IMG/VR virus record: IMGVR_UViG_3300027874_000010
Location: 10,413-74,412 of that record
Reading direction: 5' to 3' (one strand)
DNA: 64,000 bases
Source of the DNA: a virus
Lineage: Duplodnaviria; Caudoviricetes
Below the pieces are notes generated by a model. That model ran no database searches, was not told where the DNA came from, and saw only the letters and a program-made list of their open reading frames with translations. Below are positions 1 through 42,239 of the stretch, in pieces. The translations under genes were made by a program, and so were the position numbers. Every line of letters starts with the position of its first letter. Position 1 is the stretch's first letter.

Positions 1-3000
1 ATTCATGACGGCATCCACGACGGCGTTGCGGCCGTTCTGCAACGCCGTCTTGACCACCTTGCCCGCGATGTCTGAGGACTCCTCGTGGACCTTCATCGCC
101 CACTTGACCGAGCCAGCATCGCGCATGGCCTGCGTCTCGGGGATGTCCTCGGTCTTGTTCCAGTCGGCGTTGCTCCACACCGCGTGGTCCTTATCGGGCA
201 CGGCGAACTGCTCGGGGCTGCGCTGCAGCGCCGTGCTCTTGCCCGACGCGCCGCCACCGCCCAGGACGCTGACGGTCGGTCCCCCCTCGGCGGGTGGCAC
301 GTAGCCGCCGCCAGCCACACCTTGTTCGTGGTTCTCGTAGATGCCGTGTTGGGCGCGGTCGATGGCCGGCTCGTGTACCTTGTCCAGGCGCGCCTGCACG
401 TAGTCGCCCTTCTTGCCGCCCTCGGGCATGTACAGCTTCTGAGTGTCACCCTTGTCGCGCAGGAAGCCGTGCGGGTTGTCCTTGGTAATCAGCGACGAGG
501 AGTCGCCCGACTCGACGTTCTCGCCGCCGCCGACGCCAGCGGCGAAGCGCCCCGAGTTGTCGCGCGGGTGCTTGTCCTCGAAGTCCTGATCCTTGGTTTC
601 GGGCAGATCGAGGATGTTCAGCCAGGTCTGCGTCTTGGGGCGGAACACCTGTACCGGCTGGCCCGCACCGAGCAGCGAGCGCTCCATGTCGCGGATCTGC
701 TCGGTGACGGCCTTGGTCAACTCGTCGCGGGAGTCCACGATGGTGTGCTCCCACCCGTTCAGGTTGAGCTTGCCGTTCTTGTCGCTCTCCTCGGACGGCG
801 CGTGCCCAGGCCAGTAGCCGGTCGCCTCGTGGTGCAGCCACGCGCACAGCGCCTGGGGGTTGTCCACCTTGTCGGTGAGCGTGTCCACACAGTCATCGAA
901 GTCGCCCGGGTGCCCGCCGTCGAAGCGGTCCTTCCAGTAGTCGAGCAGTGCCTCCAGATTGCCCGCCTTGTAGCTCAGCCGCTCGCCGTCGTCCGCGACC
1001 TTGGTCGGCCACTCGCCCGTGGCGTGCTTGTACAGCCACGCCGTCACTTCGAGGTGGTCGTCCAGGGCTTTCATCGCCGCATCGAAGTCGCCGCCGCCGG
1101 CCGCGAAGGTGTCGCGCCAGTGGTTGAGTAGTTCCACCACCTCGGCGGTCTTCTTCTTCTTGGGCGGCTGGCGCGGGCCACCTGGCGGGACCATGATGCC
1201 GCCGTAGGTGTCGATGCCCTCGGTCAGGATCTTGGTGGCATTCAGCGGGATGGCGACCTGGCGACCATCGGTGCCCGAGTAGGTCAGATCCCCCAGGGTG
1301 ATGTGCATGCCATACAGCGGCGACCTCTGGCCGACGTACTTCGAGACGGCCGAATGCTTGATGTAGGCGATGGTCACGTGCGGCGTGTAGTTGGTGTGCG
1401 TCTCGACGTTGGCGAGCGAGCGCTTGATGATGCCGTTGAGATGGCCCGCGTCGTCGCTGGTGACGCTCACGTACAGCGGCACGCCGCCGCCCTGGTCCTG
1501 GCCGGCGAAGACGTAGTTCGGCCCAAACGTCATGGCGACCGGCGTCTGGTCCTTGACCACGCGCGCCACGTCGCTCGCGCCGACGTTGGGCATCAGCCCG
1601 TACTTGACGGTGACGTGCGGCTCCATCTCGATGCCGCCGCTGCCCAGGTCGTCGGGGTCGATGTGGTCCTCAGCCCACTCGACCAGTTCGTTGCCCAGGA
1701 TCTCTGGCAGGTTGAGTTGCGTCGAGGAGTAGTCGTAGCCGCTGGTCGCGTCGGTCTTGAGCATGTACGGGTCTTGGCCGCACCAGGCGCACACGCCGAG
1801 TTCCACCGAGCGGTAGTGGCCCATGTCGTCTTCGGGGCAGTCGGGGATGATCTCGAACCGCCCGTCGCTGGTCATCTTCGTCTCGATCATCTTCCCTCCT
1901 GGGCCGGCTGAGCCTGACTCCTGTGCGCCACCCGGTGGCGGTACGCCAGGGATGGATGGTGGTGCGCCGCCGCCGCCAGGTCGTCCGCCGAACGCGCCGC
2001 CGCCACCTGGCGGCAGGCCGGGCGGCTGGTCAGGCTGTCCTGGCGGCTTGTCCCCCTTGTGGTAGTTCGCCAGTTCGTCGGAGGGCGTCGGGATCATGTT
2101 GGCTGGCAGCAGCACCCACCCTGGCTGGTCGGTCGGGTAGCCGAGCGTCTGCGCCGCGACGTGCCACGGGATCAGGCCCGCCGTGAAGTCGGCACGCACG
2201 CGGGCGTGCACCTTGTCCACGTCCTCGGTGTAGCCCGGCACCTGGCTGAGGTCGAAGTCGAAGTGGTCAACCTCGGGGAAGTCGGGCTTGATCTGCAGCG
2301 AGAACTGCTGCGCCAGATCCTCGTACATCGGAGCCAGCGAGCCAGTCCACCACTGCGCTCGGTCCGACTCCTTGTTCGAGTTGTTCAGGCCCGACGAGGA
2401 CTGGTGGCCGAGGACCGTCCAGATGATCGACGGCGGCACGTCCAGTACCGCGCAGATCTTGGACTCGGTGACGCGGTTGATGTCGTCCAGGCCCAGGCCC
2501 ACCGGGTCCATGCCCATCTTGGTGTAGGTCGCCTGCCCGTTGTCGATGACCAAGACGTTGCCCCACCCGTCTGGCCCGCCGTACTGCTGGCGGAAGCGCT
2601 GGCGGATGATCTCGCGCTCGTTGGGTTCGACCGAGCGCATGATGTTGAGCAACCCGCTCGGCACGCCCGCGTTCCTGAAGAACGCCGTGGTGAACTCGCG
2701 GCACCACACGTCGATGTCGATGCGCTCGGCCAGCACCGCCAGCGGCGACAGGCCGTAGTAGTCGTTCAGCGGGTTGGGGTTCTTGAAGTGGATGACATCA
2801 TCCGGATCCAGGGTGAACACCCGCTCCCCGATGCGGTACTCGTACGCCTGGATGTAGTCCTTTTCGTCAGGGATGATCCACACGCGGTCGGGTCGCAGCG
2901 GCCAGTACTCGATGATCTTGCCCGAGCGCCCTCGCACGATCTCCCAGTAGGCGTTGCCGTTGATCTTGAGCGCCACCACCGTGGACGACCACAGCATGAA

Positions 3001-3315
3001 CGTCGTCCACCACTTGTTGGGGCGGTTCAGGACATCCAGCGCGGGGTGGTCGAAGATGGCGTCGGCGTCGTGCGCCTTGGAATCGAAGACCACCATGCGC
3101 GGCAGCGCCGCTGACTTCGCGACGGCCTGGCACGCGGCGAAGACGACCTCGGACCCCAGGTAGCCCTTGCGCGCCAACTGGTCGTACGAACGTTGGTTCC
3201 AGATCGGCGTGGCCGGCAGGCCAACCTGCCAGGTCGGGATGGCCGTCGCCACAGCCTGCTTCGTCTCGCCCCCGAACAGAGCGAGCGTGCGGAAGGCGTC
3301 GGCCAGCAGGCCCAT
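1..3315 (-). CDS. Portal protein (HK97-like) fused to an Acb1-like 2H phosphoesterase, two helical repeats and a zeta-toxin-like P-loop kinase; runs off the left edge (>=1105 aa)
   Basis: Absent from the ORF track because there is no stop in the window. ATG at 3315 abuts the upstream TAA. Hand translation found no stop; codon-level checks at 1141-1320 and 1861-2100. Portal motifs GNAYWEIVR, LRPDRV, DVIHFK-NP-D-YYGLSPL, FFRNAGVPSGLL. Then a Pro/Gly linker, 2H motifs HVTVKY (1609-1617) and YTPHVTIAY (1372-1380), the HPRDNSGRF tag, and Walker A GGGGASGKST (235-261) with VHEESS. Located downstream of terL. Confidence 0.9.
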   Translation of the reverse strand, partial: MGLLADAFRTLALFGGETKQAVATAIPTWQVGLPATPIWNQRSYDQLARKGYLGSEVVFAACQAVAKSAALPRMVVFDSKAHDADAIFDHPALDVLNRPNKWWTTFMLWSSTVVALKINGNAYWEIVRGRSGKIIEYWPLRPDRVWIIPDEKDYIQAYEYRIGERVFTLDPDDVIHFKNPNPLNDYYGLSPLAVLAERIDIDVWCREFTTAFFRNAGVPSGLLNIMRSVEPNEREIIRQRFRQQYGGPDGWGNVLVIDNGQATYTKMGMDPVGLGLDDINRVTESKICAVLDVPPSIIWTVLGHQSSSGLNNSNKESDRAQWWTGSLAPMYEDLAQQFSLQIKPDFPEVDHFDFDLSQVPGYTEDVDKVHARVRADFTAGLIPWHVAAQTLGYPTDQPGWVLLPANMIPTPSDELANYHKGDKPPGQPDQPPGLPPGGGGAFGGRPGGGGAPPSIPGVPPPGGAQESGSAGPGGKMIETKMTSDGRFEIIPDCPEDDMGHYRSVELGVCAWCGQDPYMLKTDATSGYDYSSTQLNLPEILGNELVEWAEDHIDPDDLGSGGIEMEPHVTVKYGLMPNVGASDVARVVKDQTPVAMTFGPNYVFAGQDQGGGVPLYVSVTSDDAGHLNGIIKRSLANVETHTNYTPHVTIAYIKHSAVSKYVGQRSPLYGMHITLGDLTYSGTDGRQVAIPLNATKILTEGIDTYGGIMVPPGGPRQPPKKKKTAEVVELLNHWRDTFAAGGGDFDAAMKALDDHLEVTAWLYKHATGEWPTKVADDGERLSYKAGNLEALLDYWKDRFDGGHPGDFDDCVDTLTDKVDNPQALCAWLHHEATGYWPGHAPSEESDKNGKLNLNGWEHTIVDSRDELTKAVTEQIRDMERSLLGAGQPVQVFRPKTQTWLNILDLPETKDQDFEDKHPRDNSGRFAAGVGGGENVESGDSSSLITKDNPHGFLRDKGDTQKLYMPEGGKKGDYVQARLDKVHEPAIDRAQHGIYENHEQGVAGGGYVPPAEGGPTVSVLGGGGASGKSTALQRSPEQFAVPDKDHAVWSNADWNKTEDIPETQAMRDAGSVKWAMKVHEESSDIAGKVVKTALQNGRNAVVDAVMN

Positions 3316-4312: not shown

Positions 4313-5788
4313 TCAGATCACCCACACGCCCACCGATCCCTGGACCAGTAGCTCGGTCAGCGACCAGACGGCGGCGTCCAGGCGGTTGGGCGACCAGCCC
4401 GTGGTGACCGGATCCCAGGTGCACATCTCGTCTTCAAGCTCGGTCAGCCCGTTGACGCCGACGTGGTGCACGCGGCCCTGGTCGTACAGCATGGCGACCG
4501 GCTCAGCCCTGATCGCCTTGCCGCGCGAGGCCGAGCGCTTCTGGACGTTGCAGTAGATGCCGCGCTCGCGGGCGGCTGTCTCGATGACCGCCATCGCCAT
4601 GTCGCCGCCGAAGTTCGTCTCGACCACGATCAGGTCGGCCTTCCAGTCGAGCCACGCCTGGACCACCCGCGCGCCCCATCCCTCGGGGTGCAGCTTGCAC
4701 GAGTAGTCCGCGATCACGTAGCCGTGCGGCAGCGCGCCCGAAAGCTGCGTCGAGTCGGCCACCCAGTTGTCGGGCGCGGGTCCAACGCCGCATACCACGA
4801 TGCCCTGCTCGTCGTTCTCGGCACCCGCGCCGCCGGACGGGTCCACGCCGATCACCACACGTCGGAGGTCGGTGGGAGCGCGTGGTACCCGCTGGCTGTC
4901 CAGCAGCGCGCGGTTCCAGAACGAGTCGGGGTTGTCGTCAATGAGCTTGCCCTCAAGCTCCTGGCGACCGAGCCGCGTGCCGGCGTACTTGTCGTAGAAG
5001 AACTGGCGAACGTCGGCGTGCAGGAAGCGGTTCTGCGCCGTGGTCGCGATGGTCAGTGCCGTCTTCGGGTCGTTGACCAGATCCTTGATGCGCTTACGCG
5101 GCTTCGGGGTGGTCGAGGCAACAGCGTGTGGGTGCGGCCCCAACCGCAACCCGAAGCGCATGTGATCGTAGCACTCGTCCAGCTTCTGCCACGCGGCCAG
5201 TTCCTCCAGCCACGCCAGACAGCGGTTGCCACCCGCTCGCAGCCGCTCAACGTCCTCGGGGAAGCTCGCGCCGAACAACTTGCCCTCCGATCCGTTGGGC
5301 CACACGATGTGCAGCCCGCCCTGGGTCTTGAACTTGATGCCGCCCGAGTGCGCCTTCAGGCCAGACGGCCCGGTGACGCACGCCTCCACCGCGTCTCCCA
5401 GGTTGGGGGCGATGATGGCGATACGATGGCCGCCGGGCAACGACTCCAGACACGGTGGACCCAGTACATGTTGGGTCACGTAGTGGGCCATCGCGTCGGT
5501 CTTGCCCGACCCGCGCCCGCCGAGCATCAGCCAGAGCAGCCACCAGTCGCCCTCGGGCGGGATCTGGTGCGGTTGCGGCGTCCAGGCGTTGAGGAGACGG
5601 TCGAGTTCTTCTAGCTCGCGCTTGTTGAGGAGAGGGAGAAGCTCCTGAAGCTCCTCGACCTCAACCCCGAATCTAGCCGCTTGCTGCCGAACTGTCTCCA
5701 GTCGCGGGTCGTCCGGTGGAACGTGTCCGTTTTGCCCGTTCGCGCGCGAGATCAAGGATGCCGCTAATTCGCTCGGCTCGCTGGTCAT
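4313..5788 (-). CDS. terL: Terminase large subunit
   Basis: Walker A LGGRGSGKT, Walker B AWLEE, RNase H-like VIGVDPSGG ... NRLDA; 491 aa. Confidence 0.95.
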   Translation of the reverse strand: MTSEPSELAASLISRANGQNGHVPPDDPRLETVRQQAARFGVEVEELQELLPLLNKRELEELDRLLNAWTPQPHQIPPEGDWWLLWLMLGGRGSGKTDAMAHYVTQHVLGPPCLESLPGGHRIAIIAPNLGDAVEACVTGPSGLKAHSGGIKFKTQGGLHIVWPNGSEGKLFGASFPEDVERLRAGGNRCLAWLEELAAWQKLDECYDHMRFGLRLGPHPHAVASTTPKPRKRIKDLVNDPKTALTIATTAQNRFLHADVRQFFYDKYAGTRLGRQELEGKLIDDNPDSFWNRALLDSQRVPRAPTDLRRVVIGVDPSGGAGAENDEQGIVVCGVGPAPDNWVADSTQLSGALPHGYVIADYSCKLHPEGWGARVVQAWLDWKADLIVVETNFGGDMAMAVIETAARERGIYCNVQKRSASRGKAIRAEPVAMLYDQGRVHHVGVNGLTELEDEMCTWDPVTTGWSPNRLDAAVWSLTELLVQGSVGVWVI

Positions 5789-10468: not shown

Positions 10469-10852
10469 ATGTCCACCACCAAGACGCCGTTCGTGCCGAG
10501 CTTCATCCCTGAGCCGGACGGCCTGCCAATCTGGAAGATGCGCGAGATCGAGCGGTCACGCCAGCACTTCATCGAGGGCGGCGCGTACGTCGGCCCCGAG
10601 GGTGAGGTGCGCTGGTTCTCCAACGACAGCGTGGTCCCGGGCGACGTGTTCCGTGATGCCTACGTGCGGGTGCCCAACCCCGAGGCTCAGGAGCGGGTGC
10701 GCGACCGTGAGACGCAGGCGTTCCTGGCCGAGTACCGCCGGGCCAACAAGGGCCGCAAGCGGTCGGCTGAGGAGATATTTGAGATGCGCGCGGCCTTCGG
10801 CCCGGGCGAGACGGTTGTCGATGTGATAACCGGTGAGCGGTTCGAGACGTGA
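10469..10852 (+). CDS. Hypothetical protein
   Basis: Strong SD; track ORF. Confidence 0.8.
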   Translation: MSTTKTPFVPSFIPEPDGLPIWKMREIERSRQHFIEGGAYVGPEGEVRWFSNDSVVPGDVFRDAYVRVPNPEAQERVRDRETQAFLAEYRRANKGRKRSAEEIFEMRAAFGPGETVVDVITGERFET

Positions 10853-11721
10853 GTACGACCTACTCACCCTCCCTGTGCACGGCGGCGCGGGATCTCCCTG
10901 TTCGCCTGTCCGAGTGGTGGATGGAACCCAAGATGGACGGCATCCGTCTGCAGATGGTCGCCAGAGGTGGCCGCGTAGACTGCTACTCGCGGGCGGGGCT
11001 GACCTACAACGGTCGTATGCCCGCCGTCGAGGAGGCCCTGTCCGCCCTGGACGTGGTAGTCGATGGCGAGGTCGTCTGGTTCTCACCCGAAACGGGTGAG
11101 GTGGACTTCCACAAAGGCTCGGGCCTGTTCCGTCGCGAAGACTCGGCGCGGGCGCAGCGCTTCGAGGGGCCGCTGACCTACGTGGTCTTCGACATGCTCG
11201 AACTGGCCGGCCAGGATCTGCGCAAGCTGCCCATCGAGACACGGCGCGGCCTGCTGGCGCAGTTGGTCGAGGGCCTCGGGTGCCCGCAGCTTCGCCTGAT
11301 CGAACAGGCCGAAGCGTCACCCGAGGCACAAGCAGCCTACATCGCGCGCTACCGCGAAGGGGTGGTCCTCAAGAAGAAGGGCAGCACCTACGTCGCGGGC
11401 CGGCCTCCGACCTGGCTCAAGCTGAAGGTGGTCGAGGATGCCGATGTGGTCATCACCGGCTTCGAGCGCGGCAAGGGCAAGTACGCCAACACCCTGGGGT
11501 GCGTCGAGTTCAGCCAGTTCCGCGAGGGCCTGTTGGAGCGGCGCGGGACGTGCTCGGGCATGACCGACGCCGAGCGCGATCACATCTGGCACAACCGCTC
11601 CGAGTACGAGGGCAAGGTGCTGGTCATCCGTCACATGGGAGCCGATGGCGAGGGCTTCCGGCACCCACAGTGGAGCCACGTTCGAGAAGACAAAAACGCC
11701 TGGGAGTGCGTCTGGTCATGA
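10849..11721 (+). CDS. lig: ATP-dependent DNA ligase (minimal adenylation + OB domain)
   Basis: EPKMDG (KxDG), VVDGEVV, VVFDML, EGVVLKK, WLKLK, FRHP. Confidence 0.93.
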   Translation: MSTTYSPSLCTAARDLPVRLSEWWMEPKMDGIRLQMVARGGRVDCYSRAGLTYNGRMPAVEEALSALDVVVDGEVVWFSPETGEVDFHKGSGLFRREDSARAQRFEGPLTYVVFDMLELAGQDLRKLPIETRRGLLAQLVEGLGCPQLRLIEQAEASPEAQAAYIARYREGVVLKKKGSTYVAGRPPTWLKLKVVEDADVVITGFERGKGKYANTLGCVEFSQFREGLLERRGTCSGMTDAERDHIWHNRSEYEGKVLVIRHMGADGEGFRHPQWSHVREDKNAWECVWS

Positions 11722-32564: not shown

Positions 32565-32746
32565 GCGGGATCTCCGTCCTCGAACTGGATGCCGTGGTCG
32601 CCCGGGTACGTCTGGCGATGCTCGATCTTGGACTGCCAGATCTCGTCGGGGATGCCGTGCGTAAACGCCTCGCAGCGCATGAACGCCTTGGGTGGCGGCG
32701 CTTCGAGGTGGATGCAGTGCAGGCAGATGGCTGGTGGGAACTTCAC
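32546..32746 (-). CDS. Small Cys/His protein (CxxCxH...CxAF..GIP..I...H...GDHGIQF), candidate immunity/inhibitor
   Basis: GTGA-coupled to the polyprotein stop. Confidence 0.8.
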   Translation of the reverse strand: MKFPPAICLHCIHLEAPPPKAFMRCEAFTHGIPDEIWQSKIEHRQTYPGDHGIQFEDGDPAWTAPS

Positions 32747-35700
32747 TCGTCGCTGGCCCGTGGCGCTTTTCCAAACACCTTTTTCATCACGTCACCCGCC
32801 GCTTTCGCGACCGGGTGCTCTGAGCCGAGATAGTACGCCGAGAACGCCTCGGCCCACGCCTCGTCGCGAGATCGCTGCGCGTAGCGCGAGAAGTCACCCA
32901 CGTTCTCGGGAGCCAGCGTCTTGGACAGGAAGAAGAAGCTGTTGAACGCCATGCGCTGATCCTCGGTGAAGGCGTCTCTGTTGTCCTGAATGGCGTTAGC
33001 GACCGCGTGGCCGAACTCGTGCACCGCCGTCGAGCCGGGGATCTTCGACTCGGGGTACGAGAAGCCCGTGTCCGCGCCGTCGCGCTCGTACTTCTCGGCG
33101 GGCAGCGGGTCGTTGGGCTGGTAGCCCGAGCCGAAGTGGATGGCCGAATAGCCGAACTCGTTGCTGCTGGTCGCCATGATCGCCTGCGGGTTCTCGCGCA
33201 TGTAGTCCTTCATGTCCTTGGTGCGCGGCTGGCCGACCTGAAGCAGCATCTTGCCGACCTCGGGGTACTGGTTGGAGAGCTTGCCCAGGAACTGCGAGAC
33301 GGGCACGAGTTGGCGCTTCAGATAACTGTCGTAGTCCACCCGTGCGCGCGGGTTCGGCAGCGTGCCCTTGAGTGCCTTGGCGATCTGTGCCTGACTCCAC
33401 TTGGTAGCGTCGTTCTGGCCGTACGGACTCTCTGGCCCGAGCGCAGCGGGCGGGTTCTTGAGTGGCGCGTCGAGCGCCGCGAACTTGGGCTTCGGAGCGC
33501 CGCCGCCGCCGCCTGAAGTCCAGCGACCACTGTCGTCGCGCGGCTGATCCGGGTCGTACGCCTTCGTCTCTAGATCTGCCCAGGTCGTCTTGGTCTGGAA
33601 CAGCGCTGCGCCATTGGGAGGTGGCCCACCGCCGCGCCGCTTGCTGTACGCCTGGGCGCTGACTTCATCCTTGCCGCCCAGGAGCACGACCTCCTTCTCA
33701 GGTTTGCAGCCGAAGCCGCTGTTCATAGTTGAGAGGATGCGACTGGCCGGTACCTTCGCGGCCATCATCGCGCCCTCGTGCTCACCCGCAAAATTCGCGG
33801 CCTGCTTGAACGAGTAGGACCACGACGACGCCGGCTGCTGTGCCGTTTGCACCACGGCAGGCTTGCCGTTGAACTTCATCCCCGTCTCACGCTGTAACGC
33901 CGCCACGGTTTTGCCAGCGCTGAAGTTCAAACCTCGGTACACGGTCATCTCGGTGATGCCTTTTGCAGCCAGGTCCGCCTGGGTGTTGTCGTACATGGCG
34001 CGAGCAAACGCTCGGTAGGCGGCACCATTCTGCTGGTACTCCTGCTCGACCCTCGCCTGGGCGTCACGTCCCTGGTAGGCAACACGAGCATCGAGGTGCT
34101 CGGTGGTCGCGTCCTCCAGGCCGAACTCGTCCTTGATGGCCTGCTGCATAGCGATGGCTCGGACGTTGGTGTCGCCCGAGGTTTCCGCCCACCCGTGAAC
34201 AAGCCTGGCAGTTTGGTTCACACGGTCCACGTCGTCCATTTGGCGTGACGGCAGGCCAGCACGACTGGCACGGCCCTCATCGAGGAGCCGCTGCACGTAC
34301 TCGTTGAATGGGGCACTGTCCTTGAGACGGTTGCCTAGTTCCCACGAGATGCGCTCCTTGTATTCGTCGCGACTGGACCTGGGATTGAACAGCGCCTTGT
34401 TCGCCGCCTGCTCGTCGGCCCTGGCCGCATTGACTGCCGTGCGGCCCATGCCGAGCGGGTCGTCGGGCGCGGAGGGCGCACCAGTAGCTTCCCATCGCCC
34501 GCGCTCGTCACGCGCCTGGTTGGGGTCGTACTCCTTCAGTTCGAGCAGCGCCCAGGTCTTGTGCGAGGGCAGCGCGCTCGGCAGCGGCGGACCGTCGTAG
34601 GCGTGGTAGGCATCCATCACGTCCTGGCTGTAGGTCTTGCCGTTGAGCATCCCGGTGTACGTCTCGGCCACGAACTCGGCTGGCTCGGTCGCCGCGTAGC
34701 GCGAGACTTGTGCGGCAGCGGCCCGGTGCGCCGGGTTCGCCCACGGCTCGTGTGCGTCGTGCTCCTTGCCCAGGCTCTCCTCGTGCACCGCGTGCTGCAA
34801 GTGCGCCAACTCGTGGGTCATCACATGCGCGGGGTCACTATCCGACCAGGCGTGCGAGTTGGCCTGATCCTGGGCGGTCGCCTTCGCGTTCGACCAGTCG
34901 CCGTTGCGGTTGACCGCCAGGTAGTCGCCGCCACGGTTGTAGCTCGCCAGCGTGTCGCGGTCGGCCATCGACTCGACGGCCACGCTCTTGGGCATGACCA
35001 TCGACGGGTTCTTCTCGGTGATGTCGAACAGTTGCCGGTTGGCCTCGTTCGCAATGGGCAGATCGCCTTGCTCCTCGAAGTGCGGGTACTTGATGCCAAG
35101 GCCCCTGGTGAACTGCGCGGCGTCCTCCAGCGACTTCGCCGGAGCGAACGCGGTTGGGCGCGGGATGACCTCCGGCTCGGGCGGCTTGTAGTCGGGCGGC
35201 AGGATGCTGCCCTTGACGTGGATCACGTCCGGGTTGATGTCGGGAGCCTCGCTGACGAGGATCTTGTCTCCTGGCTGGACGTTGCCCGGCACGTCGTACA
35301 CCACACGGACGCTGATACCCGGGATGGCGGCGGATTGCGCTGCGGTGTGGCGCTCGGCCTCCTCGGGCGTGCCGAACGCCTTCGCGCCGCTCGGGATGGT
35401 GTGGACCGAGCCTTTGTCGAGCAGCATCACCGCCGACAGCGCGTGCGGATCGCTCAGCGGGATCGCTTGGCCCAGGTGCGTCCATCGCCCCCGCTCGTCG
35501 CGCGGCTGGCTCTCGTCGTACGCCTTCGTGAACCAGTGCCGCAGGGAGGCAACCAGTTGCAGGGCGAGCTTGGTGTGGAAGATCTCGCTGGCCCCGTGCG
35601 GCGCGCCGGTTGGCGTGTTGCCCCAGGCTTGCGCCGCCACCACGTCGTCGGTGCTGCCGAGCACGACAACCTCGTCCTCGTTCTTGCAGCCGATGCCGGT

Positions 35701-38700
35701 CTTGAGCGTGCTCAGGATGCGAGACGCGGGCACCGTCGCGGCCATCAACGCCCCAGGGATGTTGCGCCCGCCCGAGAATTTGTACGCCTGACGGAAGCTG
35801 TACGCCCAGGATGACGCGGGCTGATTGCCGACCGTCACCTGATGCGGGTTGCTATCGGGCTTGAAGCCCGCCTGCCGCACCATGTCCGCGTCACGGAATC
35901 TGACGCCGCGATACAGGGTCATCTCCTTGATCCCGTCGCGCGCCAGTTCCTCCTGGGTGTTGTCGTACATAGCACGCGCGAACGCGCGATACGCCTCGCC
36001 GTTCTGTGCGTACACCCTCGCGACGTTGGGGGAGTCCATCGGCATGTGCTCGGTGCGCGCCTTCAGCCCGAACTCCTCGTTGATCGCCTTCTGCATCGCC
36101 ACCGCGTTGATGTTGCCGTCGCCCGACGTGCCAGCCCACATCGCGACCAGGCTGTTGACCGCGTGGTGCTGGCGTGTCTCGCCGGGCTTCAGCAGCGCCG
36201 TGGACAGGCTCATGGCGTACTTGCGGAACGCGGGATTGTTCGCCAGTCGCCCCGAGAGGTTCCGCACGATGTCGCCCTTGAAGTAGTTCGGGTTCAGGTT
36301 GTCGTTGTTGAGCGCCTGCTCAGCCGCCTGCTCGCGCGACTGGGCCTCGGCCTGACCCCACTCCTTGGGCGGCGCGGACATGGCGTTGCCGCCCACCGTC
36401 GTCCAGCGTCCATACTCGTCGCGCGGCTGGTTCTCATCGAATGCCTTGAGTTCGAGCCAGCGCACAGCGGTCTTGGTGTTCACCACATCCTCGGGGAAGC
36501 TCGGCGGGCCGTTACCGTTGGCTGACCAACTGAACGCGGCCACGTCGTCCTTGCCGCCCAGGACCACGACCTCCTTCTCGTCTTTGCACCCGAAGCCGGT
36601 CTTCATGGTCGAGAGGATTCGCGAGGCGGGTACCGTCGCCGCGATGACCGCGCCGTGCGTATCCGAGCCGCCCGCGAAGCCGGAGGCCACGTCGAAGCTG
36701 TACGCCCAGGACGACGCGGGCTGCTCGTTCACCGTCGCCGGGTGCGACTTGTCGTCGTACTCGAAGCCCATCGGCGGGTTGTCAGGCCCGAACTGGAGGC
36801 CACGGTACAGCGTCATCTCGCTGATGCCCTGGCGCGCCAGTTCCTCCTGGGTGTTCTGATACATCGCCCGCGCGAACGCGCGCAGGCCCGGCCCCTGCTC
36901 CCTGTACTCCTTGCGCGCCTCGAACTTCAGGTCCGCTGCGCTCTTGTCCCACGATGGTCCGCTGAGCAGATGGTCCATGCGGGCGTCGTTCAGGTGGAAC
37001 TCGTCGCGTATGGCCTGCTGCATGATGACCGACTGGACGTTGTTGTCACCCGAGCTATTGGCCCACTGCGCGATCAACCCCGACGCCGTGTCTACGGGGC
37101 TGGAGGTGCCAAAGCGCTTCTCGCCGTCAGCCAGGTACTTCTCCCAGTCGGGGTTGCCCTGCAGCCGATACGCGAGATCCTTGCTCAGGCGCTCCTTGTA
37201 CTCCGAGGCCGAGTGGGAATCGAACTGGCTGTCGATGGCCGCATCCGCGACGTTCTCGCGTCCGATGAGCGTGGAGCCTGACTCCTTGGCTGGAGCCTTG
37301 AGCGCATCCTCCTCGGCGTTGCCCTCAGCGGTCCAGCGGCCGGCGGCATCGCGCGCCTGGTTCGGGTCGTAGTCCTTTGTCTCCAGGGATCTCCAGGCGG
37401 TCTTGACGTTGAACAGTCCCTCGGGACTGAGCGGGCGTCCGGAGAGCTTGCTCCAGGCTTGTGCGGCGACCTGATCGTTACCGCCCAGGACCACCACTTC
37501 GTGTTCCCGCTCGCACCCGATACCCGAGTTCAAGGTGCTCAGGATGCGACTGGCGGGCACCGTTGCCGCCAGCATCGCGCCCCGCGAGTCGAAGTGACCA
37601 TGCAGCGCACTCGCGGCCTGCGTCACGACGCCAGCGATGGTCGCGCTCCCAAAATCGTAGGACCACGATGAGGCGGGCTGCTGGCTGACCGTCGTCGCGT
37701 GGGGTTCACCGTCGAACGTCAGGCCAGGGGGAGTCTGAGAGCCGAAGCTCATGCCGCGATACAGGGTCATCTCCTTGATGCCCTTTGAAGCGAGGTCGGC
37801 CTGAGTGTTGTCGTACATCGCCCGCGCAAACGCGCGGTAGGCCGCACCGTTGGCCTCGTAGTCGGGTCGCGCCCCTTCAATGCCCAGGTGATCCGTCACG
37901 GCGTCCTTCAGTCCGAACTCGTCGCGGATCGCCATCTGCATTGCCACGGCCTGCGGTCGGTTGTCACCCGAGGACTGCGCCCACAACTGGACCAGCGACG
38001 ACGCCGCCGTCTCGGACTGAGTGGGCACGTGCGCCCTGAGCACGTCGTACATCACCACCCTGGGCGGAACGGGATGCGCTCGCGTCAGGTACTCCTTCCA
38101 GGCGGGGTTGTCCTCAAGTCGGTCGCTGAGTTCCTTGGCGATGCGGACTTTTTCCTCGGGCCGCGAGGTCGAGTGGTCGTTGAGCGCACGGTCGGCTTCG
38201 TCCCGCCGCGCGTGCGCCACGATTTGCTCCTTGGACCAACCAGGCTTGCCGAAGGCTTCGATGGCCGAGGCTGTGGGTGCGCCGGTCGCCGCCCACCGTC
38301 CGCGCTCGTCGCGCGCCTGGTCCGGGTCGTACGCCTTGAAATCAAGCGATAACCCGTTATCGGCCCAGGTCTTGGTGTGGACCAGATCGCCCGGCTCGGA
38401 CGGCGGGAAGCCGTGGTTGGCGTACCAGGCCCACGAGTTGACTTCATCCTTGCCACCCAGGACCACGACCTCCTTCTCGTCCTTGCAACCCCACCCCGAG
38501 TCCATCGTGCTCAAGATCCGTGAGGCGGGCACGGTCGCGGCGAGCATCGCGCCGGTACCGCTCTCGGTCGGCGCGAAGCCGCTGGCCTGGTGGTAGCTGT
38601 AGGACCACGACGAGGCGGGCTGCTCGACGGTGGTGACCGCGTGCTCGCGGCCGTCGAAGATCAGACCCGTCTTCGGATCCGGGATGGTGGGGTGCGGCGT

Positions 38701-41421
38701 CACGCCGCCGACGCCGGTATCGAAGCTCATACCGCGATACAGGGTCATCTCGGTAATGCCTTTTGCAGCCAGGTCCGCCTGGGTGTTTTCATACATCGCC
38801 CGCGCGAAATCGCGGTACGCCTCGCCCCTGATGGCGTACTCCTGGCGCATCTCCTCCTTCAGGCTGGCCGCGCTCGTTCCACTCGATTCCCAGGACTGGC
38901 CGCTGAGCAGATGGTCAGTCGTCGCGTCTTTCAGCCCGAACTCGTCCTTGACAGCCTGCTGCAGCGCCGCCGGAATCACGTGGTTGTCGCCTGATGAGCC
39001 GGCCCAACTCTGGATCAGGTTGGACGCAGCCCAGGCACGCTCGGCAGCGACACTCCTGGCAGGCGCTTCCATCGGCTCGCTGCCCGACCAGTTCTGGTAC
39101 GGGTGCTCGCGGAACGCCTCGGCCTGAGAGTGCGCGTAGTCGTTGAAGGCGGCACTGCCCTCCAGTCGATCCCCGATCTCCTGGGAGATGCGCGCCTTGT
39201 ACTCCTGCTTGGAGGCGCTCATGTCGTTGATCGCCTCGTCCACTTGGTTGTGCGCCGTCTCCGCTGCCGCCGTGCCCGCCGCCGGACTGCCCGGGAAGTA
39301 CGAGCCTTCTTCGGGGTTCGGCAGGCTCGGCGTGCCGGTCGCCGCCCACCGTCCGCGCTCGTCACGCGGCTGGCTCGGGTCGTAGTCCTTGCGCTCCAGG
39401 GGGAGCCATACTGTCTTGACGCTCAACAGCGGCCCGGTGCTCTTGGGTGGACCGGCACCACCCGCGTCCCACGCCTGGGCAGTCACTTCATCTTTGCCGC
39501 CGAGCAACACCACCTCGCGCTCGGGCTTGCAACCAAAGCCCGAGTTCATGGTTGAGAGGATGCGACTGGCGGGGACGGTCGCCGCCATGACCGCACCCGG
39601 GTAGCTGCTGCCAGCTTCGGACGAGAACGTCGTGGCCTGGGAATAGGCGTACGCCCAGGACGAGGCCGGCTGCTGCACCACCGTGGTGCGGTGCGGCTCG
39701 CCATCCCCCTGCAGGCCGGCTGGCAACTCGGCATCGCGGGCGAAGTGCATCCCGCGATAGATGGTCATCTCCTTGATGCCCTTCGCCGCCAGGTCTGCCT
39801 GGGTGTTGTCGTACATCGCTCGCACGAACGCGCGGTAGCCATCCCCGAACGTGCCACCCGAGAGGCCGGTGGACTGGTTCGAGAAGTCACTGGCTCGACT
39901 GAGGTCCGTCCGGCCCACGTGGTCCATCGTCGCGTCCTTCAGGCCGAACTCGTCCTTGATGGCCTGCTGCATGGCGACCGAGGCGCTGCTGGAGTCCATC
40001 GAGGTGTTGGCCCATCCCTCGATCAGTTGGCTGACCAACTTCTCCGACGCCGCCGGACCGGTCGATGCGCCCACGTAGTCGCGGAACTTGACCCACCGTG
40101 GATCTTTGTTGGCGCGGACGGCGATCTCCTTGGCGATGCGCGCCTTGTACGCCTCGCGTGTGGCACTCTGGTCGTTGAGCGCGGCCTCGGTCGCTTTGAG
40201 CATCGCCTGCCCGGAGTCCTTGCCCGTGTCAGGCGCGCGAGTCACGTCGCCCGCGCCCACCGTCCAGCGACCGGATTCGTCGCGCGGTTCGCTCTCGTCG
40301 TACGCCTTGAATTGTCCAGCGCGTTGGACAGTTTTTCTGCGCGGGTTGTACTTGGCTCCTGGGCGCGACAGCATGCCCGCGATTCGCGGACCGTCGCCTT
40401 TGCCGAAGAAGTTGCCCGCGCCCGTCCACGAGTTCACCGTGTCCTGTCCGCCGAGCACGACGATCTCGTTCTCGTCCTTGCAGCCCATGCCGCTTTTCAT
40501 CGTGCTCAGGATGCGTTCGGCCGGCACCGTCGCGGCCATGACCGTGCCCACGACGCCGCCCGAGAAGGCACGCGCCACGTCCGGGTTGTAGGACCACGAC
40601 GACGCGGGCTGCTGAGTGACCGTCAGCGTCTCGGTGGCGGGCACGTCCTGATTCAGGCCGAAGCCTGCGGCGTGGGCGTCAGACGAGCGATCCCAGGACA
40701 TGCCGCGATACAGCGTCATCTCCGAGATCCCCTGGGCCTTCAGTTCAGCCTGAGTGTTGTCGTACATCGCCCTGGCGAACGCGCGATACGCCTCGCCGTT
40801 TTTGGCGTAGTCCCGCTCGGCCTGCTCCATCGTGCCTGCCAGGTCTTCGCTCAGGAAGTGCTCGGTGCTGGCGTTGGTCAGCCCGAACTCGCGCTGCACG
40901 GCGAGTTGCATCGCCACTGCCTGGCGGTCGCCGTCACCCGAGGTGCCCGCCCACTGGTTGACGAGGATGCTGACGCCGGTCTTCAGCGGGTCGGCCTCGC
41001 GGTCCCACATCGGCTTGAGCATCGGGTTGTGACGACCCGTCGCGACCATCTCTTTGAAGGCCGCGTTGTCGCGCAGCCGCGTGGCGATCTCGTCGGTAAT
41101 GCGCGCCTTGTACTCCTCGGCCTTGGCGTTGGGATCGTTGAGCTTGGCGTCGGCCTCCGCGACACGCTCATTGACGCGCTCCTCGCTGGCGCGCTTGGGC
41201 TGCGCCGTACCACCGCCCGAGTCCGTCCAGCGCCCACCTTCGTCGCGCGGCTGAGACGGATCGAAGTCCTTCTTCACCCACACGCCGCTGCGATTTTCCA
41301 GAAAGCTAAATTTTCGGAGCTTGGTGGTCGGCCGCTGCTCCTCGGCCGCGAGGTCCGCCCAAATCTTGTCGAGGATGGCCTCGTCCTCGGGCGTGGTGTC
41401 GTACGGCGAGCCGACGCTCAC
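32743..41421 (-). CDS. Nine-module polyprotein (2892 aa): seven ADP-ribosyltransferase-like domains + two HExxH metallopeptidases, each with an N-terminal PRDxxGRW tag
   Basis: Seven copies of EMT[LIV]YRG...QPASSW[SA]Y...AA[TK]VPA.RILST..[ST]G.GC..E.E.V.LG (R-S-ExE); THELAH and VHEFGH modules with SRYA...E..AE. Confidence 0.92.
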   Translation of the reverse strand: MSVGSPYDTTPEDEAILDKIWADLAAEEQRPTTKLRKFSFLENRSGVWVKKDFDPSQPRDEGGRWTDSGGGTAQPKRASEERVNERVAEADAKLNDPNAKAEEYKARITDEIATRLRDNAAFKEMVATGRHNPMLKPMWDREADPLKTGVSILVNQWAGTSGDGDRQAVAMQLAVQREFGLTNASTEHFLSEDLAGTMEQAERDYAKNGEAYRAFARAMYDNTQAELKAQGISEMTLYRGMSWDRSSDAHAAGFGLNQDVPATETLTVTQQPASSWSYNPDVARAFSGGVVGTVMAATVPAERILSTMKSGMGCKDENEIVVLGGQDTVNSWTGAGNFFGKGDGPRIAGMLSRPGAKYNPRRKTVQRAGQFKAYDESEPRDESGRWTVGAGDVTRAPDTGKDSGQAMLKATEAALNDQSATREAYKARIAKEIAVRANKDPRWVKFRDYVGASTGPAASEKLVSQLIEGWANTSMDSSSASVAMQQAIKDEFGLKDATMDHVGRTDLSRASDFSNQSTGLSGGTFGDGYRAFVRAMYDNTQADLAAKGIKEMTIYRGMHFARDAELPAGLQGDGEPHRTTVVQQPASSWAYAYSQATTFSSEAGSSYPGAVMAATVPASRILSTMNSGFGCKPEREVVLLGGKDEVTAQAWDAGGAGPPKSTGPLLSVKTVWLPLERKDYDPSQPRDERGRWAATGTPSLPNPEEGSYFPGSPAAGTAAAETAHNQVDEAINDMSASKQEYKARISQEIGDRLEGSAAFNDYAHSQAEAFREHPYQNWSGSEPMEAPARSVAAERAWAASNLIQSWAGSSGDNHVIPAALQQAVKDEFGLKDATTDHLLSGQSWESSGTSAASLKEEMRQEYAIRGEAYRDFARAMYENTQADLAAKGITEMTLYRGMSFDTGVGGVTPHPTIPDPKTGLIFDGREHAVTTVEQPASSWSYSYHQASGFAPTESGTGAMLAATVPASRILSTMDSGWGCKDEKEVVVLGGKDEVNSWAWYANHGFPPSEPGDLVHTKTWADNGLSLDFKAYDPDQARDERGRWAATGAPTASAIEAFGKPGWSKEQIVAHARRDEADRALNDHSTSRPEEKVRIAKELSDRLEDNPAWKEYLTRAHPVPPRVVMYDVLRAHVPTQSETAASSLVQLWAQSSGDNRPQAVAMQMAIRDEFGLKDAVTDHLGIEGARPDYEANGAAYRAFARAMYDNTQADLASKGIKEMTLYRGMSFGSQTPPGLTFDGEPHATTVSQQPASSWSYDFGSATIAGVVTQAASALHGHFDSRGAMLAATVPASRILSTLNSGIGCEREHEVVVLGGNDQVAAQAWSKLSGRPLSPEGLFNVKTAWRSLETKDYDPNQARDAAGRWTAEGNAEEDALKAPAKESGSTLIGRENVADAAIDSQFDSHSASEYKERLSKDLAYRLQGNPDWEKYLADGEKRFGTSSPVDTASGLIAQWANSSGDNNVQSVIMQQAIRDEFHLNDARMDHLLSGPSWDKSAADLKFEARKEYREQGPGLRAFARAMYQNTQEELARQGISEMTLYRGLQFGPDNPPMGFEYDDKSHPATVNEQPASSWAYSFDVASGFAGGSDTHGAVIAATVPASRILSTMKTGFGCKDEKEVVVLGGKDDVAAFSWSANGNGPPSFPEDVVNTKTAVRWLELKAFDENQPRDEYGRWTTVGGNAMSAPPKEWGQAEAQSREQAAEQALNNDNLNPNYFKGDIVRNLSGRLANNPAFRKYAMSLSTALLKPGETRQHHAVNSLVAMWAGTSGDGNINAVAMQKAINEEFGLKARTEHMPMDSPNVARVYAQNGEAYRAFARAMYDNTQEELARDGIKEMTLYRGVRFRDADMVRQAGFKPDSNPHQVTVGNQPASSWAYSFRQAYKFSGGRNIPGALMAATVPASRILSTLKTGIGCKNEDEVVVLGSTDDVVAAQAWGNTPTGAPHGASEIFHTKLALQLVASLRHWFTKAYDESQPRDERGRWTHLGQAIPLSDPHALSAVMLLDKGSVHTIPSGAKAFGTPEEAERHTAAQSAAIPGISVRVVYDVPGNVQPGDKILVSEAPDINPDVIHVKGSILPPDYKPPEPEVIPRPTAFAPAKSLEDAAQFTRGLGIKYPHFEEQGDLPIANEANRQLFDITEKNPSMVMPKSVAVESMADRDTLASYNRGGDYLAVNRNGDWSNAKATAQDQANSHAWSDSDPAHVMTHELAHLQHAVHEESLGKEHDAHEPWANPAHRAAAAQVSRYAATEPAEFVAETYTGMLNGKTYSQDVMDAYHAYDGPPLPSALPSHKTWALLELKEYDPNQARDERGRWEATGAPSAPDDPLGMGRTAVNAARADEQAANKALFNPRSSRDEYKERISWELGNRLKDSAPFNEYVQRLLDEGRASRAGLPSRQMDDVDRVNQTARLVHGWAETSGDTNVRAIAMQQAIKDEFGLEDATTEHLDARVAYQGRDAQARVEQEYQQNGAAYRAFARAMYDNTQADLAAKGITEMTVYRGLNFSAGKTVAALQRETGMKFNGKPAVVQTAQQPASSWSYSFKQAANFAGEHEGAMMAAKVPASRILSTMNSGFGCKPEKEVVLLGGKDEVSAQAYSKRRGGGPPPNGAALFQTKTTWADLETKAYDPDQPRDDSGRWTSGGGGGAPKPKFAALDAPLKNPPAALGPESPYGQNDATKWSQAQIAKALKGTLPNPRARVDYDSYLKRQLVPVSQFLGKLSNQYPEVGKMLLQVGQPRTKDMKDYMRENPQAIMATSSNEFGYSAIHFGSGYQPNDPLPAEKYERDGADTGFSYPESKIPGSTAVHEFGHAVANAIQDNRDAFTEDQRMAFNSFFFLSKTLAPENVGDFSRYAQRSRDEAWAEAFSAYYLGSEHPVAKAAGDVMKKVFGKAPRASDE
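38348..38361. promoter_or_regulatory. Palindrome GATAACCCGTTATC (copy 5 of 7)
   Basis: In the linker between polyprotein modules 3 and 4. Confidence 0.65.
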
Positions 41422-42239
41422 GCGCTCAGGCCCTTGGCCTTGAGGTACGCGGCCATCACCTGGCGACCCTGGGAAGTCGGGTCAGTGTCCATCGTCATGC
41501 CCGTTGGTCCGCCGTGCTCCTTCCAGAACGCCGCGCCGCCGGGCATCTTCATCAGGTTGCTGAGCGTGCCCGCGCCCTTGTACTGGGCCGGCCAGGTGGG
41601 GCGGAAGCCGACCGGAGCGTCGAAGCCGATGCGCGCCCAGGTGTAGTAGCCGTTTTCCTCGGGGTGGAACTCCTTGGAGCCGACGCCGGTGAGTTGGACC
41701 TTGGGCAGGCCAGCCTGGTGCGCTGCCTCGACCGCCCGCGCCATGACCTGCACGCCCTTGCCGGATCCGCGCGCCTCGGGCTTCAGGTAGATCTGTTCGT
41801 AGTGCAGGTACGGGCCGTTCGGCGCACCGTAGGTGCCGTCGCCGTTGTAGATCATGGCGACGGCCTGGTCTTCGATGTCGGGGTGCTCCGCGACGATGGC
41901 TACGCCTGGACCGTGCATCTGGTCATCCCAGTTGACGACCTTGATCTTGGCCCCGTTCGGAGCACCGACCAGTCCCGCGATCTGGTGGTCCGAGAGATCC
42001 CTACCCAGGAGCTTCTGCACGCGCGCGTGCACATCCTTGGCGACTTCGAGCGGACCGCTGCTGCCACCAGCAGTCCAGCGACCACCCTCATCTCGCTCCT
42101 CGGTTTCCCACGCTGCCTTGCGGTTTTGATCCGGCCGAAATAACAAACGCCGGGTAGGGACAATCTCCCCTACCTCGGCGCTAACGACCCGCCGCAGGGT
42201 CGCCTCCATGTCCAGCAGTGCGGCTCTTGGCTCAGCCAT
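41418..42239 (-). CDS. Tagged GNAT-like acetyltransferase
   Basis: Tag KAAWETEERDEGGRW; GNAT motif A IYLKPEARGSGKG; GYYTWARIGF. Confidence 0.8.
   Translation of the reverse strand: MAEPRAALLDMEATLRRVVSAEVGEIVPTRRLLFRPDQNRKAAWETEERDEGGRWTAGGSSGPLEVAKDVHARVQKLLGRDLSDHQIAGLVGAPNGAKIKVVNWDDQMHGPGVAIVAEHPDIEDQAVAMIYNGDGTYGAPNGPYLHYEQIYLKPEARGSGKGVQVMARAVEAAHQAGLPKVQLTGVGSKEFHPEENGYYTWARIGFDAPVGFRPTWPAQYKGAGTLSNLMKMPGGAAFWKEHGGPTGMTMDTDPTSQGRQVMAAYLKAKGLSA

Follow-up and report, generated by a model that had tools for sequence, protein, structure and literature searches.

Why would a phage portal protein run on, in a single reading frame, into a tail of about 800 residues that bears a phosphoesterase and a kinase, and what might such a tail do? 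The question is raised by one end of a 64,000-nucleotide stretch of DNA, here called the window, which corresponds to G000:C1:10413-74412 of a 74,412-base virus record of the Caudoviricetes (IMG/VR IMGVR_UViG_3300027874_000010) that is about 67% complete. On the minus strand a frame without stop extends from window position 3315 to 1, and in the parent record it continues for another 124 codons past the window edge to a stop at G000:C1:10038, giving a complete protein (P0002) of 1229 amino acids (aa). From the N- to the C-terminus this protein comprises an HK97-type portal, a Pro/Gly linker, a Zn-ribbon-like motif, a 2H phosphoesterase, two helical repeats, a short tag and a zeta-family kinase. 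A sequence-only reading of the window had described one uninterrupted frame from portal to kinase, with the kinase continuing beyond the window; both statements were confirmed, the leftward extension showing the kinase complete. The domain order and coordinates of that reading (the latter correct within about 40 bases) are right because the Pfam and PHROG domains and the match to the RcGTA portal fall accordingly. The portal fusion is a portal-anchored example of the head-associated polyvalent effectors described previously, not a new kind of system.

Evidence for a genuine portal fusion

The portal domain covers residues 1-419 (window 2059-3315, minus strand) and is of the HK97/PF04860 type according to Pfam and the PDB. 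Phage_portal PF04860 matches residues 57-359 (E 9e-55, 186.6 bits against a cut-off of 39.1), the solved RcGTA portal 6tba matches residues 29-375 (E 4e-25), and PHROGs also assigns the N-terminal part to a portal family, in agreement with the portal call made from the letters alone. The fusion is the sole PF04860 match in the 74-kb record, where the portal, 2H and zeta domains occur once each. The portal is followed by a flexible linker rich in proline and glycine (residues 420-475, window 1891-2058, minus strand; columns 420-500 of alignment A1), the length and sequence of which vary among homologues.

An identical protein is present on five contigs, and four further homologues of 1229-1233 aa, with a tail identity of 56-67%, have the same three Pfam domains in an uninterrupted frame. 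The portal runs on into the same tail in six or more further lineages from metagenomes (identity 56-77%). Both HxT motifs of the 2H domain, the four Cys/His residues of the Zn-ribbon-like motif and, in the kinase, the P-loop, the HEESS segment and the Asp of VVD are invariant in an alignment of five proteins. The ratio of nonsynonymous to synonymous substitution rates (dN/dS), determined from the two homologues with DNA, was 0.23-0.28 for the portal, 0.28-0.38 for the 2H domain and 0.58-0.60 for the kinase; with all parts below 1, purifying selection acts on the tail, in which the kinase evolves fastest.

Since at least six lineages share the fusion, dN/dS is below 1 throughout and no other portal is found in the record, the frame is not a read-through artefact. 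That a missed stop, a frameshift or a chimeric assembly fused a normal portal gene to downstream genes is extremely improbable and, judging from the homologues and from more distant proteins with the same domain order, appears effectively refuted: the point in its favour is one related contig on which the gene lies in four overlapping pieces, but that contig has several breaks, one of them within the portal, as sequencing errors would give. The four pieces are read as the result of sequencing frameshifts and not as a separate gene. For the same reason P0016, which begins exactly at the internal methionine discussed below, was rejected as a natural split form.

The 2H phosphoesterase

Residues 477-524 (window 1744-1887, minus strand) constitute the Zn-ribbon-like motif, in which C493, H500, C509 and C512 are invariant. 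Its fold is modelled with low confidence (predicted local distance difference test, pLDDT, 51-61), and the motif is also N-terminal in P0017, a free 2H protein of 197 aa. The 2H phosphoesterase, delimited by PF13563, AlphaFold and structure alignment, occupies residues 525-700 (window 1216-1743, minus strand) and has the HxT motifs H567-V-T569 and H646-V-T648 (window 1609-1617 and 1372-1380, minus strand), which are invariant in alignments of 12 and 15 sequences as well as in the five homologues. On the full protein 2_5_RNA_ligase2 (PF13563) matches residues 565-656 (E 7e-7, above the curated cut-off), and on the isolated domain it scores 34 bits against a cut-off of 27. The AlphaFold model, with a core pLDDT above 90, has the canonical 2H fold by Foldseek and VIA-align. 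A 2H domain with two HxT motifs, as had been read from the sequence, is thus supported by PF13563 and by the closest structural match below.

The more specific label of an Acb1-like enzyme held only in part. The segment YTPHVTIAY does resemble the second HxT segment of Acb1, but the Pfam Acb1 model (PF23474) has no match in P0002 at E<=0.1 or in the isolated domain at E<=0.01, and its scores for relatives are 19-21 bits against a cut-off of 27. BLASTP against T4 gp57B (from NC_000866) aligned 20 residues round the second HxT motif, 8 of them identical, and hhalign with a 15-sequence profile gave Acb1 a probability of 75% over 52 columns. Sequence searches of the PDB with the 2H domain returned nothing significant (an AKAP7-like protein at E 0.6; Acb1 at E 1.6 with a profile). 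In structure alignments the best match was the cyclic phosphodiesterase (CPDase) of D. radiodurans (drCPDase, 5h7e; Z 15.8, 162 residues aligned, root-mean-square deviation 3.4), followed by Thermus TT0787 (Z 15.1, 158 aligned), E. coli LigT (Z 14.7, 155 aligned) and human Usb1 (Z 14.7, 164 aligned). Phage Acb1 (7t26) reached Z 12.2 with 135 of 137 residues aligned and a deviation of 3.3, Z being dependent on length and Acb1 smaller than the LigT, CPDase and Usb1 comparators; the Burkholderia phage phosphodiesterase 9q2g also reached Z 12.2 (145 aligned).

By sequence, the domain appears to be of the generic PF13563 kind and about equally far from Acb1 and LigT, and its modelled structure appears nearer to LigT and the CPDases than to Acb1. 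All 15 free 2H relatives examined match PF13563, 10 match LigT_PEase and 12 match the Acb1 model at E<=0.01 (best 5.6e-7). Because these 12 matches are weak, the domain is better placed in a family neighbouring Acb1 than within it. The domain most likely acts by breaking down a nucleotide signal, or else a phosphodiester of the 2',3'-cyclic or 2'-5' type.

The C-terminal kinase

The P-loop kinase of the zeta/AvrRxo1 family begins at residue 1001; residues 1001-1105 lie in the window (1-315, minus strand), and the domain goes on to residue 1229 at G000:C1:10041. Its P-loop, GGGGASGKST, comprises residues 1019-1028 (window 232-261, minus strand). Zeta_toxin PF06414 matches residues 1010-1169 of P0002 above its cut-off (E 2e-10) and the isolated domain with E 9e-12 (45.3 bits against 22.3), whereas AAA_33 remains at 21 bits, under its cut-off of 27, and a Pnkp1 sequence match is weak too. 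The kinase model (pLDDT 86) aligns best with zeta toxin (1gvn/3q8x; Z 17.3, 217 residues), AvrRxo1 (4z8u; Z 17.1, 226 residues) and PezT (Z 16.7, 210 residues). The polynucleotide kinases of C. thermocellum (CthPnkp; Z 14.5, 159 residues, 21% identity) and T4 (Pnk; Z 11.6, 147 residues) score lower, the zeta/AvrRxo1 values being about 3 above those of polynucleotide kinases. The assignment as a zeta-toxin-like kinase, already proposed from the sequence, is therefore retained. The P-loop G-K (K1026), D1051-x-x-K, H-E-E-S, a Walker-B-like Asp and an Arg are invariant in 22 relatives, K1026 and D1051-x-x-K also in the five homologues, and the position of D1051 in the motif suggests that it is the equivalent of zeta D67. 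Known members of the zeta/AvrRxo1 family phosphorylate UDP-GlcNAc or NAD. In both the 2H domain and the kinase the catalytic motifs are intact and the fold is modelled with confidence.

Fifteen of the best 150 relatives (P0020, P0021, P0022, P0024 and others) contain a tandem pair of zeta-type kinases in one protein, and in P0044 the tag is repeated with each kinase copy.

Helical repeats, tag and exchange of the C-terminal module

Between the 2H domain and the tag, residues of about 725-860 (window 736-1143, minus strand) match phrog_6439 (E 6e-12), which bears out the two helical repeats noticed earlier; in the PHROGs search the family was assigned to the second of them. The repeats belong to no Pfam family and the protein atlas returned viral hypothetical proteins only; in tblastn they matched a protease-MuF fusion from a Streptomyces phage as well as hypothetical proteins from Mycobacterium phages.

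The tag, F-E-D-K-H-P-R-D-N-S-G-R-F with a Gly spacer, was located by motif scan between the repeats and the kinase, where it had been reported, at residues 912-931 (window 523-582, minus strand). It sits about 100 residues ahead of the P-loop of P0002 and leads the kinase cassette. Among 76 related kinase modules, 17 have the tag 77-134 residues before the P-loop, and many free kinase homologues begin with the same tag at their N-terminus; one of the tagged free kinases, P0154, has the gene of a Portal_Mu-MuF fusion on one side and that of a Mu-like prohead protease on the other. Elsewhere in the same phage, a 2912-codon open frame (window 32746-41481, minus strand) encodes a polyprotein of 2912 aa with nine copies of the tag, in the form K-x-[FY]-D-x-x-Q-[PA]-R-D-x-x-G-R-W, at a spacing of roughly 320 aa.

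The contig IMGVR_UViG_3300047160_003670 (L010) encodes a relative that is 77% identical up to residue 903, and the homology stops just before the tag. What follows is a tagged module resembling a small alarmone synthetase (L010:2541-3530, plus strand; PDB 8vx3, SaSAS, E 1.6e-13) with no Pfam match at E<=0.01. Because L010 swaps the kinase for a tagged alarmone synthetase, the tagged C-terminal enzyme is an exchangeable cassette on a constant trunk of portal, 2H domain and repeats, as in polymorphic toxins, where an exchangeable C-terminal enzyme is likewise carried on a constant trunk.

A candidate internal start

The ATG of M476 (window 1888-1890) has AGGAGGGAAG directly ahead of it, and the two together (window 1888-1900, minus strand) were read from the sequence as a candidate internal ribosome-binding site and start. 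A Shine-Dalgarno (SD)-like element before M-I-E-T-K had been suggested as a possible separate start; it is indeed present. The two homologues with DNA (L004 and L005) keep the SD-like purine run and ATG, as CGGAGGGAAG and GAGGGAGAAAAG, respectively, and the element is conserved in all three lineages although the encoded linker residues differ. Methionine is found at this position in five of five aligned proteins. Since both element and ATG are kept in three lineages, an internal start is plausible and would yield a separate product of 754 aa.

Distribution of the domain architecture

A full HMMER scan with the tail over 1.8 billion representatives (E<=1e-3) found 4532 matching proteins, and both enzyme domains occur very often within proteins of 1000-5100 aa. 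The order of portal, 2H domain and kinase recurs on two Pfam portal families, with Phage_portal_3 (PF06381) preceding 2H and Zeta in P0026, P0029, P0031 and P0039 and Phage_portal (PF04860) in P0143. Other arrangements include a portal with the 2H domain only (P0023, P0071, P0012, P0113), a free 2H-tag-kinase protein (P0098), and a 320-aa protein (P0057) that combines 2H with an XkdF-type prohead serine protease (Peptidase_S78_2, E 8e-16). The giant proteins P0069 and P0080 show that the 2H domain is not always linked to a portal: both bear it together with SNF2 helicase domains, and in neither is a portal recognisable at the N-terminus. The gene of the free 2H protein P0017 (78% identical) is on a 136-kb contig, surrounded by small non-structural genes.

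The whole tail was found in no cultured phage among 50,697 records. In these records the 2H domain matched only huge uncultured phages and Maribacter phages, the helical repeats matched Mycobacterium and Streptomyces phages, and the kinase had no match at E<=1e-3. A prophage copy was not found in 185,579 reference genomes. The high G+C content and the actinophage matches suggest a host within the Actinomycetota.

Neighbouring head genes

TerL (window 4313-5788) lies upstream of the portal fusion, and after the fusion come, in this order, the genes for a DUF7178/HExxH protein, a MuF-like protein, an S78 protease with a long fused tail and the major capsid protein; the fusion thus occupies the canonical head-module position of a portal. 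The next gene, just left of the window (G000:C1:7400-9754, also L002:7400-9754, minus strand), encodes P0003, which is 784 aa long and combines DUF7178 (E 1e-17) and a coiled coil with two tag copies and, at its C-terminus, a HEMGH region. The HEMGH region matches PHROGs of minor head proteins and has no Pfam peptidase match. DUF7178 is also fused within the portal-2H-kinase protein P0029 of another lineage. The MuF-like protein has 262 aa (L002:6045-6833, minus strand) and covers positions 486-649 of phrog_2662, annotated as 'portal protein', of which the portal covers positions 33-431. Portal and MuF are fused in relatives, because both match this one profile; here the enzyme tail and another gene separate them.

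Possible functions of the tail

The C-terminus of a portal ring points into the capsid. From the evidence above, the protein is probably a portal-anchored polyvalent effector. It would enter the procapsid as part of the portal, be released when the linker or the tag is cut, and be ejected with the DNA, after which both the 2H domain and the exchangeable nucleotide enzyme would act on the nucleotides or RNA ends of the host. Up to twelve copies per virion would be incorporated in the procapsid along with the portal, and their delivery to the host would need release from it. The S78 prohead protease or the HExxH domain of P0003 might cut the modules loose at the linker or the tag. If the freed modules leave with the DNA, the host would receive ready-made enzymes as soon as infection begins. 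The C-terminal module, which would be a kinase for nucleotide or nucleotide-sugar hydroxyls here and a pyrophosphokinase in L010, would most likely alter the host nucleotide pool or the NAD/UDP-sugar pool, and a second product from M476 may supply free enzyme in the producing cell.

Several points weigh against this proposal. Twelve tails of 90 kDa would occupy capsid volume. A product from the conserved internal SD element and ATG would lack the portal anchor, and a role in the producing cell would suit it no less than delivery. The 2H domain is no closer to Acb1 than to CPDases that act on RNA ends, and in the kinase clade the Gly that almost always follows the Walker-B-like Asp is replaced (DAVM in place of DGTG).

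The enzymes could instead act late in infection in the producing cell, through the portal fusion itself, the free 754-aa product, or both, with the fusion ensuring only co-expression or co-localisation. Such an explanation is compatible with the portal-anchored effector but rather unlikely to hold by itself. The SD-like element and ATG, conserved within an otherwise variable linker, agree with it, as does the free P0017 encoded among non-structural genes. One form of it, also rather unlikely, is that the enzymes quench signals from defence sensors that recognise the portal or other head proteins; portals are reported to trigger the Avs and SpbK defences (PMC13728456), and action in the producing cell was raised as an alternative by Iyer et al. 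2022 (PMC9503650). However, packaging agrees better with fusion partners that are time and again virion proteins (three portal families, MuF and prohead protease), and also with a tag that recurs in a multi-module polyprotein.

The portal-anchored effector may also be part of something more general. In a rather speculative extension, the portal would be the trunk of a cassette system in which the leader K-x-[FY]-[DN]-x-x-[HQ]-P-R-D-x-x-G-[RK]-[FW] with its Gly spacer serves both as a recombination boundary and as a release signal for the prohead protease, so that cassettes (kinase, alarmone synthetase, ADP-ribosyltransferases, peptidases) are freed within the head for ejection and the constant 2H domain and a variable kinase jointly disarm nucleotide- or NAD-based defence. 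As an example, the kinase might 3'-phosphorylate NAD or a signal while the 2H domain cleaves cyclic oligonucleotides. If this doubtful proposal were true, phage capsid cargo would have a general address-and-cleavage code, one like the capsid-targeting sequence of T4 but modular and widespread.

It is quite unlikely, though worth considering, that the two enzymes form an RNA end-healing pair. Once anticodon nucleases or HEPN RNases of the host had cut tRNAs or mRNAs, the 2H domain would open the 2',3'-cyclic phosphate ends and the kinase would phosphorylate the 5'-OH ends. A kinase-CPDase arrangement is known from half of the fungal or plant tRNA ligase, or from T4 Pnkp. The co-occurrence of 2H and kinase in at least six separate architectures is consistent with such a pair, as are the best structural matches of the 2H domain, which are RNA-end CPDases and LigT (Z 14.7-15.8). 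For the kinase, a bacterial polynucleotide kinase is the second-best match with the highest identity (Z 14.5, 21%), next to the weak AAA_33 and Pnkp1 sequence matches, and phage 2H domains have been tied to tRNA repair (PMC9503650). On the other hand, the zeta and AvrRxo1 matches are clearly higher over the full length (Z 17.1-17.3, 217-226 residues aligned; 45 bits against 21 for AAA_33), and the 74-kb record, within its stated completeness, has no RNA ligase or RtcB. The protein of L010 retains the 2H domain yet swaps the kinase for an alarmone synthetase, which argues against an obligatory pair.

A PF09414 match at window 10849-11721 was considered as an RNA ligase partner and rejected. The gene (plus strand) encodes a minimal ATP-dependent DNA ligase of 290 aa (DNA_ligase_A_M E 1.5e-24) that matches PDB DNA ligases down to E 1.6e-14 and touches the RNA_ligase model at its cut-off.

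A classical zeta/PezT-type UDP-GlcNAc 3'-kinase that poisons peptidoglycan synthesis, and so eases DNA entry or lysis, is very doubtful: Zeta_toxin scores above its cut-off, the top structural match is zeta toxin, including the form 3q8x bound to UDP-N-acetylglucosamine (UNAG; Z 17.3), and this role was proposed for zeta-MuF fusions (PMC5512222), but the NAD kinase AvrRxo1 matches equally well (Z 17.1), the identity to zeta is only 12-13%, and cell-wall poisoning is slow relative to the infection cycle.

Comparison with known systems

The zeta/PezT toxins and AvrRxo1 share with this kinase the P-loop kinase fold over 217-226 residues, the Walker A motif, an Asp-x-x-Lys after the P-loop and the Walker-B-like Asp. 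They differ from it in sequence (12-15% identity), and they lack the conserved extra N-terminal segment (DT..Y..ER..LH) and the tag found here. No epsilon/PezA-type antitoxin was seen adjoining the kinase, the next gene being P0003, though no dedicated antitoxin search was made. T4 Acb1 (gp57B; Hobbs et al. 2022, PMC9117128) is likewise phage-encoded and has the 2H fold and two HxT motifs, with a similar second motif segment (YTPHVTIAY here, YTPHITLSY in Acb1). However, Acb1 is a free protein, whereas the 2H domain described here is fused to a portal, larger (about 175 aa against 152 aa) and preceded by the Zn-ribbon-like motif.

MuF polymorphic toxins have variable C-terminal enzymes that include adenosine 3'-pyrophosphokinases (Jamet et al. 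2017, PMC5576092; Apk domains, PMC12226406). The resemblance to them lies in a conserved head-protein trunk with an exchangeable, toxin-like C-terminal enzyme, and in the RelA/SpoT-type synthetase that L010 has in the position of the kinase. In contrast to MuF toxins, the trunk here is the portal, MuF being a separate 262-aa gene, and a constant 2H domain stands between the trunk and the variable end. Nor was an immunity gene identified here, the same limit on antitoxin searching applying.

The closest resemblance is to the polyvalent proteins, for which fusions of 2H to MuF or portal and of zeta-like kinases to MuF were described, with 2H proposed to degrade defence nucleotides (Iyer, Burroughs, Anand, de Souza and Aravind 2017, PMC5512222). 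Iyer et al. 2022 (PMC9503650) again considered that 2H domains fused to portal or MuF are probably packaged and injected, as a counter to signalling by SMODS (the cyclic-oligonucleotide-based anti-phage signalling system, CBASS), by cyclic mononucleotides and by CRISPR systems. The idea of a 2H-portal that is packaged and injected against nucleotide signalling is therefore already published as a prediction. Like the polyvalent proteins, P0002 has several effector domains on one polypeptide, is fused to a virion component and lies among late head genes, with portal, 2H domain and kinase in one open reading frame of the head module, and the phage also encodes the tagged 2912-aa polyprotein. It differs from them in that no metallopeptidase (MPTase) domain is found inside P0002, the HExxH domain being in the next gene P0003, and in that the HPRD..GRF tag marks module starts; the three-part order of portal, 2H and zeta kinase finds no mention in the text of these two papers (PMC5512222, PMC9503650).

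The gain over this literature is incremental, because the phage is uncultured and the general idea was already present. Portal-fused enzymes have been predicted as ready-made weapons since 2017, and we know of none that has been tested at the bench. The clade described here is a compact case, with one constant 2H domain, one exchangeable nucleotide enzyme, a clear junction tag and a conserved internal start, and it raises concrete questions: is the tail cut and ejected, what are the substrates of the 2H domain and kinase, and does the tag direct processing? Relative to the known systems, four points are added: the combination of portal, 2H domain and kinase recurs in two portal families, an alarmone synthetase takes the place of the kinase at the tag in L010, the internal SD-ATG is conserved, and an over-specific Acb1 label is corrected.

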